From the IMG/VR virus record IMGVR_UViG_2861069343_000006: a stretch of DNA of 14,882 nucleotides. One strand, written 5' to 3'. How positions within the stretch are numbered: position 1 is the first letter of the stretch; every line of letters starts with the position of its first letter. The notes beneath the pieces were generated by a model. The model saw only the letters and a list, made by a program, of their open reading frames with translations, did no database searches and had not been told where the DNA came from. This document shows, piece after piece, positions 1 through 14,882 of this stretch. The DNA is from a virus. Lineage: Duplodnaviria; Heunggongvirae; Uroviricota; Caudoviricetes. Both the position numbers and the translations under genes were made by a program.

Positions 1-405
1 ATGGATCAGGTCGTTGTTTTTCAAAAGATGTTTGAGCAAGTGAGAAAAGAGCAAAACTTCTCCTGGTTTTATTCAGAATTAAAACATCACCGTATTGCAC
101 ATTACATTTATTATCTGGCTACGGATAACATCAGAATTATTACTCACGATGACACGGTTTTGTTATTAAGAGGAACCAGGAACCTGTTAAAAGTTAGTAC
201 GACCAAGAACCCTGCTAAAATAAAAGAGGCCGCATTGCTTCATATTTGCGGAAAATCTACATTTCGGGAATACTGTTCAACACTAGCAGGCGCGGGCGTT
301 TTCCGGTGGGTTACTGATGTTAATCATAACAAACGCAGTTACTACGCCATTGACAATACGCTTTTATATATTGAAGATGTAGAAAATAATAAACCATTAA
401 TCTAG
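1..405 (+). CDS. Small hypothetical protein, 134 aa (possibly the YcgX-like gene of the icd-locus flank)
   Basis: Complete ATG-initiated ORF starting at window position 1. Its length and its position beyond the IraM-like ORF and the icd fragment fit the E. coli order icdC-iraM-ycgX as I recall it. No motif recognised; assignment is by synteny and length only. Confidence 0.45.
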   Translation: MDQVVVFQKMFEQVRKEQNFSWFYSELKHHRIAHYIYYLATDNIRIITHDDTVLLLRGTRNLLKVSTTKNPAKIKEAALLHICGKSTFREYCSTLAGAGVFRWVTDVNHNKRSYYAIDNTLLYIEDVENNKPLI

Positions 406-609
406 CTAAAGTTGGATGCTTAAGAAATGCTTCATAATTCAGTAAGGCATTAGCATAATGGGAATAAAAGTACAGAGACTATCCCTATGGATGATAAATA
501 CTGTCCTTTTATTGCTACCCATAAATAATCACCATGCCAATACTATCAAATTGATATTTGAAATGTGATCACTTGACTTTCTATACGTTATTTTATAACG
601 GTTAATATA

Positions 610-643
610 TTTATAAAAACAACGGGTGTGCCATACGCCCGTT
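610..643 (-). terminator. Terminator-like GC hairpin followed by a T-tract on the minus strand (copy A of a ~50-bp repeat)
   Basis: AACGGGTGT-gccat-ACGCCCGTT stem-loop at 621-643; the preceding A-run at 610-620 gives the U-tract on the minus strand. About 85% identical to the hairpin immediately downstream of the icd fragment (1474-1522). Confidence 0.4.
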
Positions 644-1100
644 TCAATACTTAACGCACATGTGTTTTGGTTTAGTCATCATCCAGTTATATGTATTTTA
701 GCCAGGAACAGGTTAAACCTTTCCTATATAACTCAAAAATTGAAACCTTATTCTCATGTCATGCTTATATTCATTATTATCGTTATATAAAAAGGCAACC
801 ATAATGTTTAGCAAATTGGCACAAAGTAGCATAAAGGCTATGTTTTAATTACAGGATGTTCAGTCATTTGAATGTATAACATTATAGCTAAACAAATCTA
901 AAACGAAGTGAATAATTTATTGTTTTCTCTAAATCTCATTTTGTTTAACATCCATTGAGATTCCTTGCTTTAAATTTTGTTTTATATAAGCAATCGTTTT
1001 AATTAATTTATTTTTTGAAGGGGTAATATACTCATATGCAAAATAAAGAAATGAACATCCAAATGAACTATATTAAATACCGTGGGATAAGACATAACAA

Positions 1101-1424
1101 ATGAAGTGGATAGTAATTGACACGATAATTCAACCTTCATGCGGCATATCTTTTTCAGCCATATGGGGTAATATGAAAATGATCATCTGGTATCAATCTA
1201 CTATATTTCTCCCTCCTGGCAGTATATTTACACCGGTTAAATCTGGAATTATCCTTAAAGATAAAGAATATCCTATTACTATTTATAACATCGCACCATT
1301 CAACAAGGATTTATGGAGTCTACTCAAAAGCAGTCAAGAGTGTCCTCCAGGAGAAAGCAAAATAACAAATAAATGTTTGCATAATAGTTGCATTATAAAA
1401 ATATGCCCATATGGGCTCAAGTAA
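1101..1424 (+). CDS. iraM: IraM-like anti-adaptor protein (RssB inhibitor), 107 aa
   Basis: ATG-initiated 107-aa ORF ([23 protein letters not shown]...) matching my recollection of E. coli IraM/YcgW in length and N-terminal sequence. Sits next to the displaced icd fragment on the opposite strand, as at the K-12 icdC-iraM locus. Confidence 0.55.
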
Positions 1425-1470
1425 AGGGTTTTATATAAATATGCTCGATATGCTATTAATAATACCTACA

Positions 1471-1503
1471 TAAATAAAACAACGGGCGTGTTATACGCCC
1501 GTT
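1471..1503 (-). terminator. Rho-independent terminator of the displaced icd 3' end (copy B of the repeat)
   Basis: AACGGGCGT-gttat-ACGCCCGTT hairpin at 1481-1503 with a T-tract on the minus strand (A-run 1471-1480 on plus), directly downstream of the icd stop codon at 1531-1533. Confidence 0.55.
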
Positions 1504-1530
1504 GCAATATTAAACACATGTAGTGATTAC

Positions 1531-1692
1531 ATGTTCTTGAGGATCGCATCACCAAATTCTGAACATTTCAGCAGTTTAGCGCCTTCCATCAGACGTTCGA
1601 AGTCATAGGTTACGGTCTTGGCATTGATTGCGCCTTCCATACCTTTAACAATCAGGTCTGCGGCTTCGGTCCAACCCATGTGGCGTAACAGT
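1531..1692 (-). pseudogene. icd: Isocitrate dehydrogenase 3'-terminal fragment (icdC-like), a relic of prophage integration into icd
   Basis: Minus-strand translation [53 protein letters not shown] matches the C-terminus of E. coli Icd. Similarity stops abruptly near 1692, with AT-rich non-coding DNA beyond. The e14 family is known to integrate into the icd 3' end and leave such a fragment. Confidence 0.8.
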
Positions 1693-2390
1693 ATATAAAA
1701 ACATTAAGTTCAAGTCATTGATATTTAATGATAAAAATTATTTTATTGTTTTTTTATTAGCCAAAATCAACTTTATTCAACCGTTTGATTTCATTGACGT
1801 TCGTTTTTATTTTGGGGAAAGGTTTTCTCTACCATTTATATCCAAATTACAAGTCTACATTTTATTAACATCTCAATACATGTGAGGCCTTGCAGACCTT
1901 TGTGAGACCTTATGTGTCTCTGTTTTGTCCCAACTTATGTTAAGAGGCACATAATTAAAAATAAGATAACGATGCCGCCAAGCAGTGCAAAACCTTGTTT
2001 ACTCCACGACTGTCTGCCCCATTATCTGCATACATAATTATCTTCCATAACTGAGATAAATGTCGGTTATGAGCGAACAACAGACGTTTAGTTTATGATG
2101 GCTGTGTCTATACATTAAACATAACATCCATTACCGGCACCGCTTATTAATTGCTATCTGATATTGTCACTAAAAAATAGGCATTCCCCGATATAATAAT
2201 CACAAAGAAGCTTTTGGTGCTGGCAATCGGTATACCTAATAGTGGACTGCGACTTTCCGGACTCGACAAGGATATATCAATGTATGAGCAGGAAAATTAG
2301 ACCGTGGTGCGTCATATGATGACTAAGCACGGATAACAGCTACTTAATTGAAACTATTGATTATATTACAGCCAGTGCCTTATAGGATGG

Positions 2391-3512
2391 TTAGTCATCA
2401 ACCGCGACTCCTGCACAATCATGGGCTATTGCCAGCAATTGTTTTTTAATTGCTTTAGCATCTACCGTCATATCTACTGTAGCAAAATGGATCTTATGTC
2501 CCTGAGTGACAACATACTCATTAAGCATATAGCCAACAGCTGGATGAAGTAGAAGACCAGCGGCATTGAGCGAAAGCGGATCCGTCTTGTTCTCCTGTGT
2601 TCTAAGGTAGGTATATAGCTGATAAATATAGCCATTACGTAGTGATTGCTCCCGATGCCAACCCTTTGTCAGAATCGAATTAAATTTGGTATCGATAATA
2701 ATACGCCGCTGGGCAGTCTTGTGTTCCAGAATAATGTCTGACTTCATTGTCGGGAAAATCTCTGCACTACCTGCACTTTGATCGCTCAACGCCCATTTCA
2801 GCTCTTTCCCTGCAGAGACCTGCCAAGTTGTTTTGGCAAGGTGTACACGATATAAGCCAGCGATACCTTTTTCAAATAGTCTTCTCATCCAGTAAAGGTT
2901 ATTTGAGGGCGCAGGTAAAAGATATTGGCCTTGATCTTCGGTCGGCATCAGCAGTTCAAAAGCTAATCGTGCGGCATCGACCATCGGTTTATCTGCGGCA
3001 TCATGGCGTCCAAAACGCCACACTGAGGGTAATTCGTGGGGGGCAGGATATCCTCCATTTATCCCCTCACGGCGAAGTGATATTGCCATAAAATGGCAAT
3101 CTGCCGCCAAAGACGGTTTCACTATGATTGAGGCCAGACGTTCTAACGCACAGCGAACATAGCGATTTCGGGGGGTGTTGAGGGTTATGTCTTGAAAATG
3201 GCAGGCAACCTGTCCCCGTTCCAGTAGTTGATGACTGGCAGTATACAGTATGTCAATGCGCCCTCTCACTCGGTTCAGGGCCGCATGACAAGTTTGGTAT
3301 CCCATATTTAAATTGCGACGTCGGCGCAGCGTAATCTCATGAAGGAGGATTGTCGCCACCAGGTCGGGGATTTCTGCTGGGTTATCTTCTACTGCGATCT
3401 GATTGCGCCCTAACTGACGAAACAGATCTGAAGCGTACAGCATCAGCATCCAGATATTTCGCATGGGAATACGTGATGCTGTATGTTGCTCACTCCCGGT
3501 TATTGTCGTCAT
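2391..3512 (-). CDS. mcrC: McrC-like subunit of a McrBC-type modification-dependent (type IV) restriction system
   Basis: 373-aa ORF with McrC-like blocks (IPMRNIWMLMLYA; DIILEHK...RIIIDTKFNSIL; YIYQLYTYL...GLLLHPAVG) comparable to E. coli McrC. Its start overlaps the stop of the upstream McrB-like gene (ATGA), indicating a translationally coupled operon. Confidence 0.85.
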   Translation of the reverse strand: MTTITGSEQHTASRIPMRNIWMLMLYASDLFRQLGRNQIAVEDNPAEIPDLVATILLHEITLRRRRNLNMGYQTCHAALNRVRGRIDILYTASHQLLERGQVACHFQDITLNTPRNRYVRCALERLASIIVKPSLAADCHFMAISLRREGINGGYPAPHELPSVWRFGRHDAADKPMVDAARLAFELLMPTEDQGQYLLPAPSNNLYWMRRLFEKGIAGLYRVHLAKTTWQVSAGKELKWALSDQSAGSAEIFPTMKSDIILEHKTAQRRIIIDTKFNSILTKGWHREQSLRNGYIYQLYTYLRTQENKTDPLSLNAAGLLLHPAVGYMLNEYVVTQGHKIHFATVDMTVDAKAIKKQLLAIAHDCAGVAVDD

Positions 3513-5491
3513 TTTGCTAATAACACTTTTCTGGCTTCATCGACTTTATTTGGAGCATCGAACCAATATTCGGCGAGCAAAGGGCAGATCTCTGTATCAA
3601 CGACTTGTTCATACCAAGCCTGGGCATCGTTGATTTTTTGGCCGATAGCTGGGGTGACATAGCTGTGACCGATACAAAACTGTGGTCCTAAGGTAACATC
3701 TTTTGCCAGCATATCGTTAAGTACCGTCAGTCGAGATTTGATGAATGCTAACATGTCAAAATCAATTGCGTAATTATAATTTACCCAGTTTCTCCACGCG
3801 TCATTAAAAGCTGGCTTTAGATCGATAAACGCGAAACGACGGCGCAGCGCTAGGTCAAGTAGTGCGAGTGAGCGGTCTGCAATATTCATCGTACCGATGA
3901 TATATAGATTCTCAGGAATGTATATTTTTTCATCATCATTTTTAGGATAGGAAAGAGATAATGCCTCAGTCGGCGTGCGTTTATCTGCTTCCATCAACGT
4001 GAGTGTTTCACCGAAGATTTGCGCCGGATTGCCACGATTAATCTCTTCAATTATCACCACATATTTCGAGGTAGGATTATTGACTGCAGTTTTGATTGCA
4101 TTTACAAAAGGTCCATCAATTAGCGTCAATTGCCCTTCTTTACCTGGACGCCAGCCGCGAATAAAGTCTTCGTAAGAGAGGTTCGGGTGAAATTGCACCG
4201 CGCTAATACGCTCAGGTGCTTTTTCTCCCATCAAGCAGTACGCCAGACGTCGCGCTAACCAGGTTTTTCCAGTTCCGGGTGGTCCTTGTAATATCAGGTT
4301 TTTCTTGTCGATCAGGCGCTGAAGTGTGAGTTGGATCTTAGCCTCTTCCAAGAAACAGCCATCCTGCACCAGATGACTGATGTCATAAGGAACGTGAGTG
4401 AGTTTTGGCAACGGCGCACTCTCTTCGACAGTTTCCTCAGTTATCGTCTGGGATTCATTTTTCTCAAAATTCAGGTATTCATAATTTCCGGACTCAAGGG
4501 ACTTTAACTCATCATCATTGCATAGTTTCTGTAGATAAAAGTAGATTGAGCTTGTAACTGTTTTGCTCTCAGGATGCTCTACCTTGAATACGTCCAAGTA
4601 GTTTTCTTCCAACTCCGAAGCAGTGAAATAAGGGCCATTTTTTTTCAGGCATAACGCCTTAATTTTATTCAGTAAAGAGGCTTTCCACGTTCTATTTGCC
4701 ACCTCATCTTTAGACTGGCTAAGATCTGTATTCCACGCTGATAAAGAAAGTTCTGGGAAAGAATGAACCGGATAGTTTGGTTGGGTAAAGACCTCGTTCA
4801 GCGCCCGCATAAGACTCAGGTAACTTTGTCCACTACAGCGACCTTTTGCCCCGTTTTTAATGATCTTAATGTTTAACACTGTCTGAATGTAATACTGCGA
4901 CTGGCTATCTAAAGTAGGGTAGAACCAAGGACGGGTCCAGTACAACCCCATGGTGAGATTCCAACCGACATTCATTACTGTAGAAGCAATGTCATATGCG
5001 GCAGTGAAGTCTGCAGAGTTAGTATTCTGGTTATCCGCAAAGGTCATTGCCTGCGAGAACATTTCCCACAAGCATTCAATGTCATTAGGGTCGCGTGACT
5101 TTTCATAACCAAAGAACCAAGATTTTTGGTTATTCAACAGCGGGATTCCGGCAAAGGAGTCAGGAATCGGTTCGTTCACGCCCAACAAATTCGCTAGCTT
5201 GGCAGCAATAATTTTGCGATTGCTGTCGGTCAAGTTACGATTGAACAAGCCCATAGTAGTAAACGGACAAATGTCTTTTAAGGGAAAGATCTCTCCCATA
5301 ATAGATTTGTCCTGCAGATGGGACATTCCTTCCACACCTGAGGCAATTAGATGAATACCTTTGACTAATTCATCTCTACGATTTCGCCAAGTCAGTAACG
5401 CGTTGGCAAAAGCCTCATAAAAACTAGCCCAAGCAAATTTGCCATCATGTTCTGCTGTATCCACGGGAACTCCATTATACTTGTTGAGCAA
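3509..5491 (-). CDS. mcrB: McrB-like GTPase (AAA+ family) with an extended, unrecognised N-terminal domain of about 390 aa
   Basis: The C-terminal ~265 aa are close to E. coli McrB: KKNLILQGPPGTGKTWLARRLAYCLMGEKAP, IIEEINRGN, IPENLYIIGTMNIADRSLALLDLALRRRFAFIDL. The first ~390 aa show no resemblance to the E. coli K-12 McrB N-domain. Start is uncertain: TTG at 5491 is the longest extension, GTG at 5464 has a weak upstream SD. Confidence 0.85.
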   Translation of the reverse strand: MLNKYNGVPVDTAEHDGKFAWASFYEAFANALLTWRNRRDELVKGIHLIASGVEGMSHLQDKSIMGEIFPLKDICPFTTMGLFNRNLTDSNRKIIAAKLANLLGVNEPIPDSFAGIPLLNNQKSWFFGYEKSRDPNDIECLWEMFSQAMTFADNQNTNSADFTAAYDIASTVMNVGWNLTMGLYWTRPWFYPTLDSQSQYYIQTVLNIKIIKNGAKGRCSGQSYLSLMRALNEVFTQPNYPVHSFPELSLSAWNTDLSQSKDEVANRTWKASLLNKIKALCLKKNGPYFTASELEENYLDVFKVEHPESKTVTSSIYFYLQKLCNDDELKSLESGNYEYLNFEKNESQTITEETVEESAPLPKLTHVPYDISHLVQDGCFLEEAKIQLTLQRLIDKKNLILQGPPGTGKTWLARRLAYCLMGEKAPERISAVQFHPNLSYEDFIRGWRPGKEGQLTLIDGPFVNAIKTAVNNPTSKYVVIIEEINRGNPAQIFGETLTLMEADKRTPTEALSLSYPKNDDEKIYIPENLYIIGTMNIADRSLALLDLALRRRFAFIDLKPAFNDAWRNWVNYNYAIDFDMLAFIKSRLTVLNDMLAKDVTLGPQFCIGHSYVTPAIGQKINDAQAWYEQVVDTEICPLLAEYWFDAPNKVDEARKVLLAK

Positions 5492-5814
5492 TGATAATTT
5501 ATCTGTGTGAGTTTTAACATATTACTATCAGTTATAGAAAAATTTAACTACCCGATACAGAGAGCGGCATGCTGAATTTGACCTGACTTGCTTCCAACTA
5601 ATTAAAATCAACTTATTTATCAATTGGTTATTTTGGCGCATAGCGGTCATCAAGGGAATATCGCGTTGTCATAAGGTGTCGAGGCTCGGAGGTTCAAATC
5701 CTCTCATGCAAAAAATAAATAAAATTAATGACGGTTGGAAATTATTCAATACATACACTCTCGAAAGTGCATCAGCCAACCGCAGCACGTCTTGCATACG
5801 GCGTGTCTGCAGTT

Positions 5815-6370
5815 TTATATAATCCTGGCTGGAAACCTCTTATACAAAGTAGATACACCAATATCATAGATGATCGCCACCTTCTGACGCGGGACTTTTG
5901 ATGCAATTAATCGCCCGGCCTGCGCCCATTGTTCTGATGTAAGTTTAGGACGACGTCCACCAATTCCTCCCTGTGCGCGAGCATCTTCCAGTCCAACTTT
6001 TGTCAGTCATCAATCAGTTCACGCTTCATTTCAACCAGGGCTCCATCACATGGAAAAATAAAAAAAACCATCGATGTTGACGTGTCAATGTTACCTGTCA
6101 GGCTACGGAAATCCCCCCCTTACCCGCAGCTACTCGGTAAGTATAATAAGATGTTTCCTGCTCCTTCCTAACCTGTCCAGTTTCCAGACAATTAAAGTAT
6201 CACCTTATATAAGAGACTGCAGAGCGCACTTTAACCTAGGTCGTTCTGAAATAGTTGCAGATTCGATTAATCAACGATTATACTCCCCGGCACTCCAGAG
6301 GATCTGGTAAACATAAAGTCAGAGCTTGGGTATACTGGCACACAAATGGCAGATCTTGCAGGTGCAGCCA
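5815..6370 (-). pseudogene. Serine recombinase (Pin/Hin/Gin-type DNA invertase) pseudogene with multiple frameshifts and stops
   Basis: Minus-strand translations in shifting frames give GDTLIVWKLDRLGRS, FFIFPCDGALVEMKRELIDD and GGIGGRRPKLTSEQWAQAGRLIASKVPRQKVAIIYDIGVSTLYKRFPA, collinear with Pin-family invertases. No continuous ORF of 60 aa or more exists, and the N-terminal region is not recoverable. Boundaries are approximate. Confidence 0.55.
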
Positions 6371-6505
6371 GTCATAGCCAGTGGCGAAAATACACGAGTG
6401 GTTCTGAGCCCCGCGCCATGTCATCACATATCTTGTTTTTTTATTGCTACCAATCTGACTTTGAGTACTAATGAGCTAGATAGAATTGTTGGTAATGACT
6501 CCAAC

Positions 6506-7009
6506 TTACTGATAGTGTTTTATGTTCAGATAATGCCCGATGACCTTGTCATGCAGCTCCACCGATTTTGAGAACGACAGTGACTTCCGTCCCAGCCTTG
6601 CCAGATGTTGTCTCAGATTCAGGTTATGTCGCTCAATGCGCTGAGTGTAACGCTTGCTGATAACGTGCAGCTTTCCCTTCAGGCGGGATTCATACAGCGG
6701 CCAGCCATCCGTCATCCATACCACGACCTCAAAGGCCGACAGCAGGCTCAGAAGACACTCCAGTGTGGCCAGAGTGCGTTCACCGAAGACGTGCGCCACA
6801 ACCGTCCTCCGTATCCTGTCATACGCGTAAAACAGCCAGCGCTGACGTGATTTAGCACCGACGTAGCCCCACTGTTCGTCCATTTCAGCGCAGACAATCA
6901 CATCACTGCCCGGTTGTATGCGCGAGGTTACCGACTGCGGCCTGAGTTTTTTAAGTGACGTAAAACCGTGTTGAGGCCAACGCCCATAATGCGTGCACTG
7001 GCGCGACAT
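6506..7009 (-). CDS. insB: IS1 transposase InsB
   Basis: 167-aa translation ([58 protein letters not shown]...) matches IS1 InsB nearly residue for residue. Confidence 0.9.
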
Positions 7010-7203
7010 CCGACGCCATTCATGGCCATATCAATGATTTTCTGGTGCGTACCGGGCTGAGAGGCGGTGTAAGTGAACTGTAGTTGCCATGTTTTACGGC
7101 AATGAGAGCAGAGATAGCGCTGATGCCCGGCAGTGCTTTTGCCGTTACGCACCACGCCTTCAGTAGCGGAGCAGGAAGGACATCTGATGGAAATGGAAGC
7201 CAC
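6928..7203 (-). CDS. insA: IS1 protein InsA
   Basis: 91-aa translation [58 protein letters not shown]... matches IS1 InsA. Confidence 0.9.
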
Positions 7204-7253
7204 GCAAGCACCTTAAAATCACCATCATACACTAAATCAGTAAGTTGGCAGCA

Positions 7254-7742
7254 TTACCTTGTTAGTTTGTCTTTTGTGTTTACCTGATTCGGGTAAACGC
7301 CTTTACCTGATTTAGGTAAACTTTTCTTACCTGATTCAGGTAAATTTACCTCTTTCAGGTAAACTTTATTTTTCTTACCCGATTCGGGTAATGTTGACCA
7401 TTCACTGACCACATTATTGATGCCGATATTCCGCCCGCTCTGAATAAAAATCCCACGCTTTACCAGAACACTTTTTGCAGCAGAACACTTGTGCGGCAAT
7501 ATCCCGGTTAATTCGGAAAGTTGCTCGTTGCTAACCCAATCCAGTTTTTTATTAAAGCCATATGTTTTGCGCATGACAGCCAGAAAGACCAGAAGCTGGT
7601 GCTGTGTTAATCCGGCCAGCATCACAGCTTCCAGCAACTCATTTGCAATGCGCGTATAACCATCATCGAGATCTGCCACGCGCCGCTCCTTTTGTGCCAC
7701 ATCCGGCACAGGAAAATTGAATATCTCAGCAGTGTTTGCCAT
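7254..7742 (-). pseudogene. O: Lambda O-like replication initiator, N-terminal portion only, truncated by IS1
   Basis: From ATG at 7742 (SD GGGAGGA upstream): MANTAEIFNFPVPDVAQKERRVADLDDGYTRIANELLEA...LLVFLAVMRKTYGFNKKLDWVSNEQLSELTGIL parallels the lambda O N-terminal domain. The frame runs through the iteron array and ends with a stop inside the IS1 terminal repeat. The C-terminal P-interacting domain is absent. Confidence 0.75.
7280..7391. repeat. Five ~18-bp dyad-symmetric iterons (consensus TTACCTGATTCAGGTAAA), an ori-like array inside the O-like gene
   Basis: Copies at 7280-7297, 7303-7320, 7327-7344, 7346-7363 and 7374-7391, each TTACC-N7/8-GGTAA, spaced about 19-24 bp apart within the O-like reading frame. 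This mirrors lambda-type origins, which lie inside O. The flanking AT-rich portion is cut off by IS1. Confidence 0.6.
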
Positions 7743-7828
7743 AATTCCTCCCGCAATGAGTGTGTTACGATTTGCACCTGAAAGTCGGTTCTGTTCCCGC
7801 AGACCGACTTTCGCCATTTCTGAACCTG

Positions 7829-8368
7829 TCATATTGCCCCCAGCATGGTGGTGACCATCGCCATCAATGGACCAGCCAGATCCGGGTCCACTCGAAACAT
7901 CGACACAATGCCTTCACTCATCTCCTTCAGTTTCTGGTGGCGTGGTGCGTTGAGAATGACCGCCTGCTTTGCCTCACAGAGTTCCTTTTCCATTTCAGCC
8001 AGCCGAGCCATGAAGCTATCCTGCTCAACCAGGTGGCCGCGATATTCCAGCGGTAGTACCGCCAGAATTGCCGGGGTCAGTTCACGCACGTTATTTCGGT
8101 ATTTTTCAGAATCGAATTTGTTATCGAGGAAGCGGAACAGCTTCTGGCGTGCACGGCTGACATCATCAGGGAAATCGATAGTGCCGCCGCCCTGCTCCCG
8201 ATACTCATTCACAATGAGTGTGGCAACGACATCCTGATTATCTTCAGCCGACCAGGCGCGGACGGCATCACGGATTTTTTCGTGGCCTGGCACCTGTTTT
8301 GTTTGAGAACGATTTATCACCGCAGTCGGGCTAAATCCGCTAGTCTGTTGGTATGTAAGTAGTTGCAT
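7829..8368 (-). CDS. YdaT-like prophage protein (Rac ydaT family), 179 aa
   Basis: ATG at 8368 preceded by AAGGAG. Segments NEYREQGGG...RQKLFRFL...LTPAILAVLPLEYRGHL resemble my recollection of Rac YdaT. It sits immediately upstream of the O-like gene, as ydaT precedes ydaU in Rac. Confidence 0.5.
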   Translation of the reverse strand: MQLLTYQQTSGFSPTAVINRSQTKQVPGHEKIRDAVRAWSAEDNQDVVATLIVNEYREQGGGTIDFPDDVSRARQKLFRFLDNKFDSEKYRNNVRELTPAILAVLPLEYRGHLVEQDSFMARLAEMEKELCEAKQAVILNAPRHQKLKEMSEGIVSMFRVDPDLAGPLMAMVTTMLGAI

Positions 8369-8579
8369 AATTGACTCCTTTAGTTTGAATTGACTGTTAA
8401 GTTGATTGCTTATTGTTAAAGAGCGTGAAATGGAAATTTAAGCTGCGTTCTTTTCGGTGTGTGGAAACAACTTCGGAAGATCCGGGCGAATCTGGTATGC
8501 CTTCACTACTCCACCAGTAGCCGTAACAATGCTGCCGACATGTTCAGGGGATACCTTTGCTTTGTTGTGAAGCCACTTA

Positions 8580-8862
8580 TATCTATGACAAGGATGAAGC
8601 CGAGCGCATTGTCGAAAATACCGCATACACTGCAGAACGTCAGCCGGAACGCGACATCACTCCGGTTAACGATGAAACCATGCAGGAGATTAACACTCTG
8701 CTGATTGCCCTGGATAAAACATGGGATGACGACTTATTGCCGCTCTGTTCCCAGATATTTCGCCGCGACATTCGCGCATCGTCAGAACTGACACAGGCCG
8801 AAGCAGTGAAAGCTCTTGGATTCCTGAAACAGAAAGCCTCTGAGCAGAAGGTGGCTGCATGA
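8580..8862 (+). pseudogene. bet: Lambda Bet (Red-beta) 3' fragment, C-terminal ~93 codons only
   Basis: [93 protein letters not shown] matches the C-terminus of lambda Bet. Similarity starts abruptly near 8580, and upstream sequence is unrelated in this frame. The stop overlaps the exo start as in lambda. Confidence 0.85.
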
Positions 8863-9539
8863 CACCGGACATTATCCTGCAGCGTACCGGGATCGACGTG
8901 AGAGCTGTCGAACAGGGAGATGATGCGTGGAACAAATTACGACTCGGCGTCATCACGGCTTCAGAAGTTCACAATGTGATAGCAAAACCCCGCTCCGGTA
9001 AAAAGTGGCCTGACATGAAAATGTCCTACTTTCACACCCTGCTGGCTGAGATTTGCACCGGTGTGGCTCCGGAAGTTAACGCTAAGGCGCTGGCCTGGGG
9101 AAAACAGTACGAGAATGACGCCAGAGCCCTGTTTGAGTTTACTTCCGGCGTGAATGTTACTGAATCCCCGATCATCTATCGCGACGAAAGTATGCGCACC
9201 GCCTGCTCTCCCGATGGTTTATGCAGTGACGGCAACGGCCTTGAGCTGAAATGCCCGTTTACCTCCCGGGATTTCATGAAGTTCCGGCTCGGTGGTTTCG
9301 AGGCCATAAAGTCGGCTTACATGGCCCAGGTGCAGTACAGCATGTGGGTGACACGAAAAGATGCCTGGTACTTTGCCAACTATGACCCGCGTATGAAGCG
9401 TGAAGGACTGCATTATGTCGTGGTTGAGCGGGATGAAAAGTACATGGCGAGTTTTGACGAGATGGTGCCGGAGTTCATCGAAAAAATGGACGAGGCACTG
9501 GCTGAAATTGGTTTTGTATTTGGGGAGCAATGGCGATGA
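8859..9539 (+). CDS. exo: Lambda-type exonuclease (Red-alpha), intact 226 aa
   Basis: [64 protein letters not shown]...GFVFGEQWR is essentially the bacteriophage lambda Exo sequence over its full length. Confidence 0.95.
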
Positions 9540-9601
9540 CGCATCCTCACGATAATATCCGGGTAGGCGCGATCACTTTCGTCTACTCCATTACAAAGCG
9601 A

Positions 9602-9628
9602 GGCTGGGTATTTCCCGGCCTTTCTGTT
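9602..9628 (+). terminator. tL3-like rho-independent terminator downstream of exo
   Basis: GGCTGGG-tattt-CCCGGCC hairpin followed by TTTCTGTT. The surrounding ~140 bp after exo matches the lambda sequence downstream of exo as I remember it from Red-recombineering constructs. Confidence 0.5.
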
Positions 9629-9690
9629 ATCAGAAATCCACTGAAAGCACAGCGGCTGGCTGAGAAGATAAATAATAAACAGGAGGATAT

Positions 9691-10755
9691 ATGAGTCAGG
9701 TTGGTAATCATTCATTCGAATTTCCGGCATCGCAAGGTGTACAGGGTGGTACTGTTACACTCTTCCTTACCATACCAGGAAGATCGCTGGCTCGTTTCCT
9801 CGCTTCAGATAATTACGGCCATACACTGGAACGCTCTCAGCGAGAAATTAATCCAAATCGAGTACGAAAATTTTTAAATTATCTCACTAACGCAGACTCA
9901 AGAAATGAGTCTTTTATCATTCCCCCTCTCGTAGGTAACTGTGATTCGAATATAGAATTTGTACCGTTTGGCAACACAAATGTTGGTATAGCCAGAATTC
10001 CCCTCGACGCCGAAATAAAACTTTTTGATGGCCAACATCGTGCAGCTGGCATTGAGATATTTTGCCGAAGTTCCCCATCAACGCTCATGGTTCCCATGAT
10101 GCTTACAATGAATCTGCCGCTAAAAACCCGGCAGCAGTTCTTTTCGGACATAAATAACAACGTTTCTAAGCCATCAGCGACCATCAATATGGCGTATAAC
10201 GGCCGGGATGATATTGCTCAGGGAATGATATCCTTCCTGACCCAACATACTGTATTTGCCGATATAACCGATTTTGAACACAACGTAGTGCCATTAAAAA
10301 GTAATATGTGGGTGAGTTTCAAGGCACTCACTGATGCAACGTCAAAGTTTGCTAGGAACGGCAATCAACAACTTGAAATGGGATATATAGAATCTGTCTG
10401 GGAGGCATGGATTACACTAACTCAGATTGACTCAATCCGACATGGTGTACACCACGCTACGTACAAGCGCGATTATATTCAGTTCCATGGAGTAATGATT
10501 AACGCTTTCGGTTTTGCGGTTCAACAGATGATGGTTAATCATTCCATCGCAGAAATAACTTCTATGATCGAAAAACTCTGTGCAACTACCAGCTCTGCAG
10601 AAAGAGAGGATTTTTTTCTGATGGATAACTGGGCGGGGATCTGCACGAAAGCCAGCCAGGAAAAACTATCGGTTATTGCCAATGTGGCAGCGCAGAAAGC
10701 AGCAGCAAACAGACTGATACAAGCTTTTACCAAAGGAAGTCTGGAAACAACTTAA
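9691..10755 (+). CDS. DGQHR-motif protein (DndB-like, ParB/sulfiredoxin-fold superfamily), 354 aa, no partner genes
   Basis: ATG preceded by a strong SD (AGGAGG). Contains the literal motif KLFDGQHRAAGIE that defines the DGQHR/DndB-like family. No dndCDE, dpd or ssp partner genes are present in the window. Flanked by terminators on both sides. Confidence 0.75.
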   Translation: MSQVGNHSFEFPASQGVQGGTVTLFLTIPGRSLARFLASDNYGHTLERSQREINPNRVRKFLNYLTNADSRNESFIIPPLVGNCDSNIEFVPFGNTNVGIARIPLDAEIKLFDGQHRAAGIEIFCRSSPSTLMVPMMLTMNLPLKTRQQFFSDINNNVSKPSATINMAYNGRDDIAQGMISFLTQHTVFADITDFEHNVVPLKSNMWVSFKALTDATSKFARNGNQQLEMGYIESVWEAWITLTQIDSIRHGVHHATYKRDYIQFHGVMINAFGFAVQQMMVNHSIAEITSMIEKLCATTSSAEREDFFLMDNWAGICTKASQEKLSVIANVAAQKAAANRLIQAFTKGSLETT

Positions 10756-10832
10756 TGAATCAACATTGTCTCATATCAGCATGCTGTACGGCGTCTTTAA
10801 GGAACGGTGAGCATGAAAAACAAAATCATCAT

Positions 10833-10856
10833 GGAGCTACAGGCTCCTTTTTTATT
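10833..10856 (+). terminator. Rho-independent terminator downstream of the DGQHR gene
   Basis: GGAGC-tacag-GCTCC hairpin followed directly by TTTTTTATT. Confidence 0.5.
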
Positions 10857-10908
10857 ATTCGCATTCACCCTCAAGCGTATTAACCAACAATTCAGGGATT
10901 AATGAAAG

Positions 10909-11127
10909 ATGGCAGACATCATTGATTCAGCATCAGAAATTGAAGAATTACAGCGCAACACAGCAATAAAAATGCGCCGCCTGAACCACCAGGCTATATC
11001 TGCCACTCATTGTTGTGAGTGTGGCGATCCGCTAGATGAACGAAGACGCCTGGCCGTTCAGGGTTGTCGGACTTGTGCAAGTTGCCAGGAGGAGATCGAA
11101 CTTAAGAACAAACAATGGGGACTGTGA
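10909..11127 (+). CDS. TraR/DksA-family C4 zinc-finger protein, 72 aa (phage TraR-like RNA polymerase-binding regulator)
   Basis: CCECGDPLDERRRLAVQGCRTCASCQ fits the TraR/DksA C4 zinc-finger signature (CxxCGxxI/L...RR...CxxCQ). Size and location in the exo-xis region are typical of phage TraR homologues. Confidence 0.6.
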   Translation: MADIIDSASEIEELQRNTAIKMRRLNHQAISATHCCECGDPLDERRRLAVQGCRTCASCQEEIELKNKQWGL

Positions 11128-11174
11128 TGGCCTCAAAGCAGCAAATTTCAACATCGTCCAACTGAGGTGTAAAA

Positions 11175-11414
11175 ATGTTCAGAATCATTTTTCCTAACAC
11201 CTGGTACGTCGACCACCACGGCACTCCCTGCAAAATCCTGCGTTCTACCCACAACAAAGTTCACTACATCCGAAAAGGCAGAACATGTATCGCCAGCATG
11301 TTCCGCTTTAATCATGACTTTGAACCTGTGAATAAAGCTGATGCAGATCGGATAGCAGAAGAGATCGAAACGGCAGAACACATTAAGAAGTTACGTGCCA
11401 TACGCAGGAAATAG
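11175..11414 (+). CDS. Small hypothetical phage protein, 79 aa
   Basis: ATG preceded by a GAGGTG SD 6 nt upstream, co-directional with the neighbouring phage genes. No motif recognised. Confidence 0.35.
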   Translation: MFRIIFPNTWYVDHHGTPCKILRSTHNKVHYIRKGRTCIASMFRFNHDFEPVNKADADRIAEEIETAEHIKKLRAIRRK

Positions 11415-11553
11415 AAAAATTGATAAATTCAATACTGCATTTCTCAGCATTAAATTTATCTCTATGACCAGTCAAGAGATGTACCTGCCATGAGCTTAAT
11501 ATCATGTCAGATATATCGGTCACAAACTCCCTCAGCAGCTAAGAGGAGGACAA

Positions 11554-13781
<2,228 letters not shown>

Positions 13782-14882
13782 TTATATTGCAAATTAGATA
13801 AGCGAACCGGAAAGGTATATTGGCAATACAAACATCCACTATCCGGTCGTTTTCATAGCTTAGGAACTGATGAGAATGAAGCAAAACAAGTTGCTACTGA
13901 AGCAAATACCATTATTGCTGAACAACGTACCAGACAAATATTAAGCGTCAATGAGCGTCTGGAAAGAATGAAAGGCAGGCGCTCAGACATTACGGTGACA
14001 GAATGGCTTGATAAATATATTTCTATCCAGGAGGACAGGCTGCAACATAATGAACTAAGACCCAACTCCTATCGGCAAAAAGGCAAACCCATTCGTCTTT
14101 TCCGTGAGCATTGTGGAATGCAACACCTCAAGGATATTACCGCACTTGATATTGCCGAAATAATTGATGCTGTAAAGGCTGAAGGTCATAACAGGATGGC
14201 GCAAGTCGTGAGAATGGTGTTGATCGACGTCTTCAAAGAAGCACAACACGCAGGACATGTTCCGCCAGGATTTAACCCAGCGCAGGCAACAAAACAACCG
14301 CGAAATCGAGTAAACCGCCAAAGATTGTCACTGCCCGAATGGCAGGCAATATTTGAAAGCGTAAGCAGACGGCAGCCCTATTTAAAATGCGGCATGCTAC
14401 TTGCTCTTGTTACTGGACAACGTTTAGGCGATATCTGCAATTTGAAATTCTCTGATATATGGGACGACATGTTGCACATTACTCAGGAAAAAACCGGTTC
14501 AAAACTTGCTATTCCGCTTAACCTGAAATGCGATGCTCTGAATATTACCCTTCGTGAAGTTATATCTCAGTGCAGGGATGCTGTTGTTAGTAAATATCTG
14601 GTCCATTACCGTCACACTACCTCTCAAGCAAACAGAGGAGACCAGGTTTCTGCAAATACTCTGACAACGGCTTTTAAAAAGGCCAGGGAAAAATGTGGCA
14701 TAAAATGGGAGCAAGGAACTGCGCCCACATTTCATGAGCAGCGATCTCTGTCAGAACGGTTATATCGGGAACAGGGTCTGGATACGCAAAAGTTGTTAGG
14801 CCATAAATCCAGAAAAATGACCGACCGATACAATGATGATCGTGGTAAAGACTGGGTTATCGTAGATATCAAAACAGCATAG
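13782..14882 (+). pseudogene. int: Lambda-family tyrosine integrase, 3' portion (C-terminal ~366 codons), disrupted by IS100
   Basis: LALVTGQRLGDICNLKFSDI, KTGSKLAIP, HEQRSLSERLY and LLGHKSRKMTDRYNDDRGKDWV parallel lambda Int, including the catalytic region. The reading frame is joined to the 11780-11827 fragment only if IS100 is removed. The six-frame ORF start at 13731 lies inside the IS100 right end. Confidence 0.8.

Follow-up and report, generated by a model that had tools for sequence, protein, structure and literature searches.

Hill et al. are said to have described in 1989 how element e14 is flanked by icd and icdC, and how these two recombine on its excision. In Escherichia coli K-12, e14 displays icd on one side and an icdC fragment on the other (PMC13626634). 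The IraL/IraM/RssC family was described as evolutionarily labile and horizontally acquired, K-12 having gene iraM and CFT073 lacking it (Hryckowian et al. 2014, PMC4045071). The same paper places iraM 'on the e14 prophage', in contrast to what was observed here: both in K-12 and in the stretch under study, iraM is located past the displaced icd end and not within the current element. This stretch, hereafter the window, comprises the 14,882 nucleotides of IMG/VR virus record IMGVR_UViG_2861069343_000006 and corresponds to positions 2681966-2696847 of NZ_CP029369.1 in E. coli WCHEC035148 (locus L016; the RefSeq annotation was used). In it, iraM is bracketed by two short hairpin-bearing repeats, named copies A and B. 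Our results indicate that these probably derive from two successive icd terminators, each consisting of hairpin, U-run and 3' untranslated region (UTR), that were stacked by repeated integration of elements into the icd 3' end. Repeats and older fossil go unmentioned in PMC4045071, and no paper pairing iraM with icdC was found in the searchable literature, subscription-only papers being outside the search.

Copies A and B were found where the original prediction had located them (613-664 and 1474-1522), in direct orientation and with a start-to-start spacing of 860 bp. The open reading frame between them, predicted as iraM-like, was indeed the bracketed gene but proved to be iraM itself (1101-1424, plus strand). 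The two copies had been called nearly identical, which is somewhat generous for a similarity of about 83%: 36 of 43 positions were identical without gaps (616-658 versus 1476-1518) and 43 of 52 aligned columns with gaps. The similarity is nonetheless real, since the best direct pair of 43-mers in 60 dinucleotide-preserving shuffles of window positions 1-3000 reached at most 29 identities (mean 27.1), which places the A/B match far beyond chance. Within the window, this similarity did not extend past about 50 bp into icd coding sequence, local and anchored alignments being no better than background there. The window is organized as follows.

1-405, plus strand: ycgX, coding for a DUF1398 protein (open reading frame and RefSeq); chromosomal flank that would have been adjacent to icd before iraM came
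458-568, plus strand: small open reading frame ymgL (RefSeq, from L016), outside the iraM unit and present in filled and empty alleles, including iraM-less loci L001 and L002
613-664, minus strand: copy A, with its hairpin at 621-643; icd-end profile positions 6-53 (see below); putative oldest displaced icd terminator and 3' UTR, decaying
665-1100, plus strand: upstream region of iraM, including small open reading frame ymgK at 804-848 (RefSeq); homologous to the long allele (see below), probable element remnant
1101-1424, plus strand: iraM, coding for anti-adaptor IraM (PmrD-like fold family PF11183), 99-100% identical to annotated IraM; phrog_4407
1425-1473, plus strand: 3' flank of iraM, ending at a deletion junction in the A-run before copy B; homology to the long allele stops at 1474
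1474-1522, minus strand: copy B, with its hairpin at 1481-1503; predicted intrinsic terminator of icd until the present prophage integrated
1527-1690, minus strand: displaced icd 3' end, an icdC-type pseudogene with the last 54 codons and the stop codon; its translation is the Icd C-terminus (partial dehydrogenase in RefSeq)
1691-14882, strand not assigned: degraded lambdoid prophage in icd, with an mcrC/AAA-ATPase pair, IS1, bet/exo, xis, IS100 and integrase (13758-14882) according to RefSeq

As anticipated, copy B appeared to be the terminator immediately after the displaced icd end, 4 nt past the stop codon of the 165-nt minus-strand remnant. On the minus strand it folds at -27.3 kcal/mol (z = -6.3) with a U-run behind the fold, and the terminator scanner called it. 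Copy A, described in the original prediction as a minus-strand terminator deprived of any gene to terminate, only partly deserved that description: no minus-strand gene precedes it and the U-run was kept, but its stem is damaged (-11.4 kcal/mol and z = 0.13 in the window strain) and the scanner did not call it. The combination of a stable GC-rich hairpin with a U-run, as expected of an intrinsic terminator, is thus predicted for copy B and not for copy A. The stem of copy A was intact in some lineages (MSB1_8B and A3 are examples) and mutated without compensation in others, including the window strain and K-12, which suggests that there is no selection on this hairpin. The 23-nt core of copy B recurred unchanged in E. 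albertii, in Citrobacter and in E. coli with an empty site.

A probable origin of copy A emerged when the interval between ycgX and icd was compared among 5,426 complete E. coli genomes with and without iraM. A clean filled/empty polymorphism was observed. The short allele, organized as in the window and K-12, occurred in 3,871 of the 5,426 genomes (at least 80% of the iraM-specific segment being present), and prophage-free strains displayed iraM with copy B directly following intact icd. The empty allele, recorded in 1,037 genomes including those of sequence type 131 (ST131), displayed a single hairpin that joins the left flank of copy A to the apex and right flank of copy B and runs straight into the icd stop codon. 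A long allele was restricted to 17 genomes. It runs from bluF and bluR through ycgX, copy A, an IS3-like fragment and a gene of the YmgB/AriR family to iraM, which here has a different terminator of its own; then follow trkG, a remnant of IS5, a gene for a 455-aa hypothetical protein, an e14-type arm of about 40-85 nt, the hairpin and intact icd, the interval to icd reaching about 6 kb. Deletions mediated by IS1 were among the states of the remaining genomes. Carriers of the long allele are E. coli proper, since its Icd and NudJ were identical to those of the window genome and its housekeeping flanks were about 96-97% identical.

In the long allele, copy A was found at the same place after ycgX and ymgL, window positions 1-654 aligning with 10001-10636 of locus L049. 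There (L049, L050 and L053) it matched the icd end in register through 3' UTR, stop codon and last four codons (ACATATTCTTGAT). This in-register identity amounted to 29 of 37 positions, a value that was reached by none of 20,130 random placements (maximum 21). A profile built from 14 icd ends aligned with copy A over positions 7-73 in the long allele and 6-53 in the short one. Both share the CAATACTTAA signature, which separates them from every icd-adjacent copy, and copies A more generally have derived characters in common (GCC apex, ATAC and ACGCAC) besides lineage-specific stem damage. In-register extension into coding sequence, profile coverage and shared signature together identify copy A, as far as sequence can tell, as the terminator of a once-displaced icd 3' end, and not as an attachment (att) site inside the terminator or as an independent terminator.

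The same profile revealed three layers in the window genome: the functional icd end (profile positions 3-365), copy B with its icdC fragment (4-226) and copy A (6-53). No older icd-end fossil was detected by the profile further left, in 18 kb through the bluRF/ycgZ-ymgAB cluster. Several features of an icdC-type fossil were encountered: homology to the icd 3' end including its terminator, direct copies flanking cargo of a phage gene family (with an e14-type arm closing the interval in the long allele), an inner copy attached to working icd in prophage-free strains, and a single-copy site in related genomes (about 1,037 E. coli, and Citrobacter).

Comparison of both filled alleles also accounts for the short form. 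Measured against the long allele, both of its edges are deletion junctions: the icd fossil and IS3 fragment have disappeared from the right of copy A, and before copy B, 4.8 kb are gone, which in the long allele lie between iraM's own terminator and the hairpin (trkG, IS5 remnant, 455-aa gene and e14-type arm). Both deletion end points share CTA(C/A)CAAAAA. The seemingly neat end of the repeat at the terminator would result from the fact that deletions on the copy B side could go no further without destroying the icd terminator. Upstream of iraM, the long allele displayed an additional stretch of about 440 nt carrying the YmgB/AriR-family gene, and window positions 711-1072 were 72% identical to L049 10926-11279.

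A few further observations concern these alleles. The YmgB/AriR-family gene, just upstream of iraM (L049 11242-11496, L053 9681-9908), is a paralogue of ycgZ, ymgA and ariR, located a few kb to the left, which hints at a shared origin of these small connector proteins. A supposed third allele with the copy B flank and no iraM (L006, H90) was rejected, as it turned out to consist of IS1-mediated adjacent deletions: in L006 (1380-1440) and L037 (4246-5040), IS1 abuts the last 45 nt or so of the iraM unit by copy B, the whole region between pdeG and iraM being deleted together with both genes. These deletions stop just short of the icd terminator. In one long-allele genome (GCA_009898965.1, L048 9186-9270), ymgL and copy A are absent, the equivalent of window positions 446-706 being replaced by about 40 nt, which shows that copy A is dispensable.

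Elements that integrate into icd carry the hairpin as well. In the window genome, the current prophage meets the displaced icd end at 1690/1691 (its right junction), divergence from intact icd starting after GGCGTAACA, and a third hairpin with the functional icd end was located about 60 nt past the window end (L016 32940-33302), that is, between integrase and functional icd. Several distal flanks of the hairpin could be distinguished: a ycgX side, an iraM side, an integrase-adjacent type and an e14 type. The integrase-adjacent flank, rich in TTTTGGGG, was encountered in the window's prophage, L010, E. albertii and Escherichia sp. MOD1; integrase fragments persist at the hairpin flanks of the latter two, and integrase-adjacent hairpin copies were present in L010, L012 and L013. 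The e14-type flank, reading GATAAAATTTTGATAACCGTTAGCA, occurred at an additional, third copy in Shigella flexneri and in Citrobacter, and in K-12 inside e14, beside the icd 3' end that e14 supplies. The K-12 e14 variant of the hairpin kept its stem through compensatory changes (AACGGGAGCG TTA CGCTCCCGTT) and displayed the characteristic arm next to the icd end. Compensatory changes likewise kept the terminator stem in Citrobacter.

The phage-borne hairpin presents two peculiarities of its own. Right upstream of it, between integrase and third hairpin (L016 32885-32935), are three direct repeats of GTTTTGGGGAA(A/G), a flank also found in L010, L012 and L013; these repeats may be arm-type integrase binding sites in attL. 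Moreover, the third hairpin itself (L016 32949-32971, about 67 nt past the right end of the window) has apex CGTATAACACG and not CGTGTTATACG, of which it is the exact reverse complement. The inverted apex was also recorded at the copy B position in JMK_KBN3987 (L029), and it implies either a flip of the hairpin apex or recombination between hairpin copies. In this strain, the iraM-side flank is joined to the phage-type inverted apex, a junction indicating that recombination within the hairpin does occur.

As to the cargo, IraM matched phrog_4407 (E = 4e-52), the TrkG-like protein phrog_1916 and YcgX phrog_413. Relatives of IraM with 57-71% identity were found in late regions of lambdoid and Stx prophages, between Q or stx and the lysis genes. 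Relatives of IraM in general were encountered under E. coli labels only, in agreement with PMC4045071. At the nucleotide level, homology to these phage genes was confined to coding sequence (window 1086-1420), without hairpin or flank homology nearby, which makes the phages relatives of the gene and not of the locus. Many lambdoid prophages display iraM-like genes right beside stx2 A/B or between Q and lysis genes (L024-L027 for Stx prophages; L017-L023), and the gene is even labelled iraM in one Stx2a phage record. Phage-borne RssB anti-adaptors, expressed on induction, may hence be present in some E. coli.

These data would fit the following history. Elements of the e14/phage-21 type bring a replacement icd 3' end with its terminator, and their integration displaces the chromosomal end to the far side of the element. 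As suggested by allele comparison, ycgX would ancestrally have stood beside a single terminator and icd. Integration of an e14-family element would then have stranded the original icd end, the present copy A, by ycgX and ymgL, with a YmgB/AriR-like gene, iraM and trkG as cargo. Loss of integrase and structural genes may have led to the long allele of about 6 kb, and deletions of the icd coding fossil, the YmgB-like gene and the 4.8 kb segment to the short allele, where iraM lies 50 bp from copy B. Homologous recombination between copies A and B could subsequently have removed the 860-bp unit and left one hybrid hairpin, as in ST131 and, according to the literature, CFT073. The last step can be read directly from the sequence: a later prophage displaced copy B together with 165 bp of icd and supplied the third hairpin. 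The original prediction that iraM had arrived or been rearranged by recombination at the icd site was thereby supported in substance (terminators of icd ends, a phage-borne gene family, a filled/empty polymorphism). In detail it requires correction, for the repeats are not att sites of a small iraM cassette but would be the remains of a remnant of about 6 kb trimmed by deletions on both sides.

Several observations weigh against this history. Only about 15 nt of icd coding sequence survive beside the long-allele copy A, where 165 nt would be expected from an e14/phage-21 crossover. A candidate for a further icd remnant toward the att core, again in the long allele, is weak (p of about 0.03 versus shuffles, 8 of 222 control chunks scoring as well), and nhmmer recovered no further icd remnant beside that copy A. 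Since the window itself lacks similarity beyond about 50 bp, the argument depends on an allele found in 17 of 5,426 genomes, whose fossil is adjoined by an IS3-family fragment. Neither integrase, excisionase nor structural genes were present between copies A and B in the short or the long allele; the identity of the element consequently rests on arm and cargo and it is not typable by its recombinase, although the missing recombinase is consistent with a fully decayed remnant. A living element with the long-allele cargo and arm was searched for as well: among complete E. coli genomes, this combination was limited to the same 19 or so long-allele genomes, and the phage collection contained no living element with this cargo. 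The e14-type arm of about 40-85 nt in which the interval ends also occurs beside icd in Citrobacter, where one copy was detected, and it could be an old chromosomal flank captured by e14. Finally, the part from ycgX to iraM is only 72-86% identical between long and short alleles despite flanking housekeeping genes of about 96% identity, a contrast that suggests recombination at the locus, which could blur polarity deduced from trees.

This last point matters for the direction of the filled/empty polymorphism. Layered integration could hold while the empty allele of ST131 and relatives represents a never-occupied ancestral state, that is, an old polymorphism. Its hairpin follows the consensus over its whole length, in agreement with those of E. 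albertii and Citrobacter, its flanks form a single clade, recombination is frequent at the ycgX-icd locus, and an unoccupied site is indistinguishable by sequence alone from a precise deletion between copies A and B. In addition, a Citrobacter sp. displayed pdeG-like, ycgX (71% identical), an 800-nt spacer, a single related terminator, icd, rluE, nudJ and mnmA without iraM, from which the unoccupied state appears ancestral at the genus level. This arrangement also disagrees with the scenario, envisaged in the original prediction as its refutation, of an ancestral iraM with the repeat as local duplication noise. Within E. coli, however, flanks of empty alleles differed from those of short alleles at only 13-24 of 615 nt, no more than short alleles did among themselves, the long allele being about 20% divergent. 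A ycgX tree, for which Citrobacter and the long allele served as root, grouped empty alleles with the iraM-bearing short allele A3, inside the short cluster. Moreover, 4-5 fixed changes are common to all copies A of the short allele, which makes the duplication, and with it the integration, much older than the cluster and spread of short-allele flanks. We therefore regard a never-occupied empty site as rather unlikely in E. coli; most likely the empty allele is a secondary, precise 860-bp deletion, which would have proceeded by recombination in the left 15 nt or so common to both copies. Other YcgX homologues were considered as outgroups and discarded as not syntenic, the one of E. albertii lying in a lambdoid prophage and that of Escherichia sp. 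E10V10 at fli/yedE.

A second explanation involves a cassette of about 810 bp carrying iraM, integrated either site-specifically or in Campbell-type fashion into the icd terminator through its own terminator-like site of about 50 bp. In that case, copies A and B would represent attL/attR hybrids, and the empty site would be the unoccupied attB. The clean filled/empty polymorphism, with its single hybrid hairpin in empty genomes, is what such a cassette would produce; the left part of copy A resembles the consensus and its right part is derived, a pattern to be expected of a crossover hybrid, and the repeat in the window spans just terminator and 3' UTR. Yet the long-allele repeat reaches icd coding sequence, and iraM is found there within an interval of about 6 kb ending in an e14-type arm instead of an 810-bp unit. 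Likewise, both boundaries of the short unit are deletions relative to the long allele, phage iraM-like genes have only coding sequence in common and no hairpin nearby, and no recombinase is associated with the unit. A cassette origin is thus very improbable. Related candidates, a transposon target-site duplication or an integron cassette, were ruled out: the repeat measures at least about 50 bp instead of the expected 2-14 bp, an inverted-repeat scan detected no terminal inverted repeats at the ends of the iraM unit, and no recombinase gene occurred among the window open reading frames of this unit.

The number and context of hairpin copies were examined at two scales. Per-genome copies were counted with a 63-nt query around copy A in the 5,426 genomes, which yielded a median of 2 and a maximum of 4 places. 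An exact-pattern scan, in which each of 185,579 species was represented by a single genome, returned 12 loci, from E. coli/Shigella, E. albertii, another Escherichia species, three Citrobacter species and two probable contaminant contigs; all 12, and every other copy inspected, adjoined the icd 3' end. The proposal that the hairpin is a small dispersed repeat was thereby refuted, the genome-wide search showing nothing like the tens to hundreds of copies typical of repetitive extragenic palindromic (REP) sequences and bacterial interspersed mosaic elements (BIME). That the hairpin is a generic REP/BIME-like repeat or a convergently similar terminator, coincidentally paired around iraM, can practically be dismissed: it is superficially REP-like as a short GC-rich palindrome within AT-rich intergenic DNA, but to its low copy number and constant icd neighbourhood is added a similarity that extends over some 20 nt of 3' UTR that are not palindromic and, in the long allele, into coding sequence. 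Matches in plasmids were set aside as uninformative, being mostly chromosome-sized or chromosome-derived records or small pieces with a hairpin fragment near sitABCD. One of these, plasmid-labelled NZ_CP098209.1 (14.8 kb; L038 387-467), displayed an 81-nt hairpin/icd-end fragment with sitBCD; it may have come from the sit island by excision or through misassembly, this island being located at icd in some iraM-less strains such as DETEC-P793.

Regarding present-day roles under layered integration, copy B, a relic icd terminator in this genome, probably still stops transcription of iraM, which converges on it. Copy A, we infer, would be a relic in decay, of consequence mainly through the homology by which iraM can be lost precisely. 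A bolder and rather doubtful extension is that both repeats turn iraM into a module that can be deleted precisely, its loss having been favoured by selection in ST131, CFT073 and relatives, perhaps together with a gain of the paralogue IraL on another island; the fossil terminators would then act as a switch in the rewiring of RpoS stability between lineages, and the PhoPQ-to-RpoS connector would be domesticated cargo of the e14 family that is not carried by e14 itself.

Additional features were noted in the current prophage. At its end beside the displaced icd fragment, an mcrC-like gene and a gene for a 650-aa AAA ATPase form a McrBC-type restriction pair (2391-5491, minus strand), while e14 of K-12 carries mcrA at the matching position; defence cargo at this end of icd-integrated elements thus seems interchangeable. 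In the early region, beside exo/bet, lies a gene for a 354-aa DGQHR-domain protein (9691-10755, plus strand), which may be another cargo gene related to defence or DNA modification. IS1 (6506-7203) interrupts the replication region and IS100 (istA/istB, 11914-13715) is inserted between excisionase and integrase genes; the prophage is probably immobile.

This study provides a concrete origin at the sequence level for iraM, the anti-adaptor gene linking low-Mg2+/PhoPQ signalling to RpoS stability. The gene appears to be cargo of an ancient icd-integrated element and not part of today's e14. Precise loss between two short repeats would account for the lack of iraM in about one fifth of complete E. 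coli genomes, among them those of ST131, which is a major lineage of extraintestinal pathogens. More generally, successive integrations can be read as layers at the icd site (three in this case), which should be useful for dating acquisitions at an integration hot spot and annotating the small 'orphan terminators' that they leave.

Among described systems, icd/icdC of e14 and phage 21 in K-12 is the closest. There too, the element enters the icd 3' end and supplies a replacement, the chromosomal end remaining as a pseudogene fragment on the far side, and both ends are direct repeats able to recombine and delete the interval. Copy B with window positions 1527-1690 is exactly such a fragment, and copy A would be an older one. 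Several differences were observed. Copy A has lost its icd coding part entirely in the short allele and all but about 15 nt of it in the long one, only terminator and 3' UTR being left. The element between copies A and B has neither integrase nor phage structural genes, and its retained cargo, iraM, is a host-integrated regulator. Lastly, recombination between both copies would use only about 15-45 bp of homology instead of 165 bp.

Grounded (cryptic) prophages and host-domesticated phage accessory genes (morons), the subject of review PMC6379469, offer a second parallel. They also decay by deletion to a few useful cargo genes, with AT-rich cargo under its own promoter and cargo families that active lambdoid phages carry too (iraM-like genes between Q/stx and lysis; DUF1398 near lysis or terminase genes). 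In contrast to them, the present remnant is reduced to a single gene, and its origin is recognisable only by terminator fossils and a rare longer allele. For the IraL/IraM/RssC family, published strain variation matches the presence/absence polymorphism counted here. Displacement of the 3' end of a target gene by an integrating element is a mechanism already known, and no new one is proposed; what is new is an older, almost erased instance of it that would explain both the origin and the loss of iraM.

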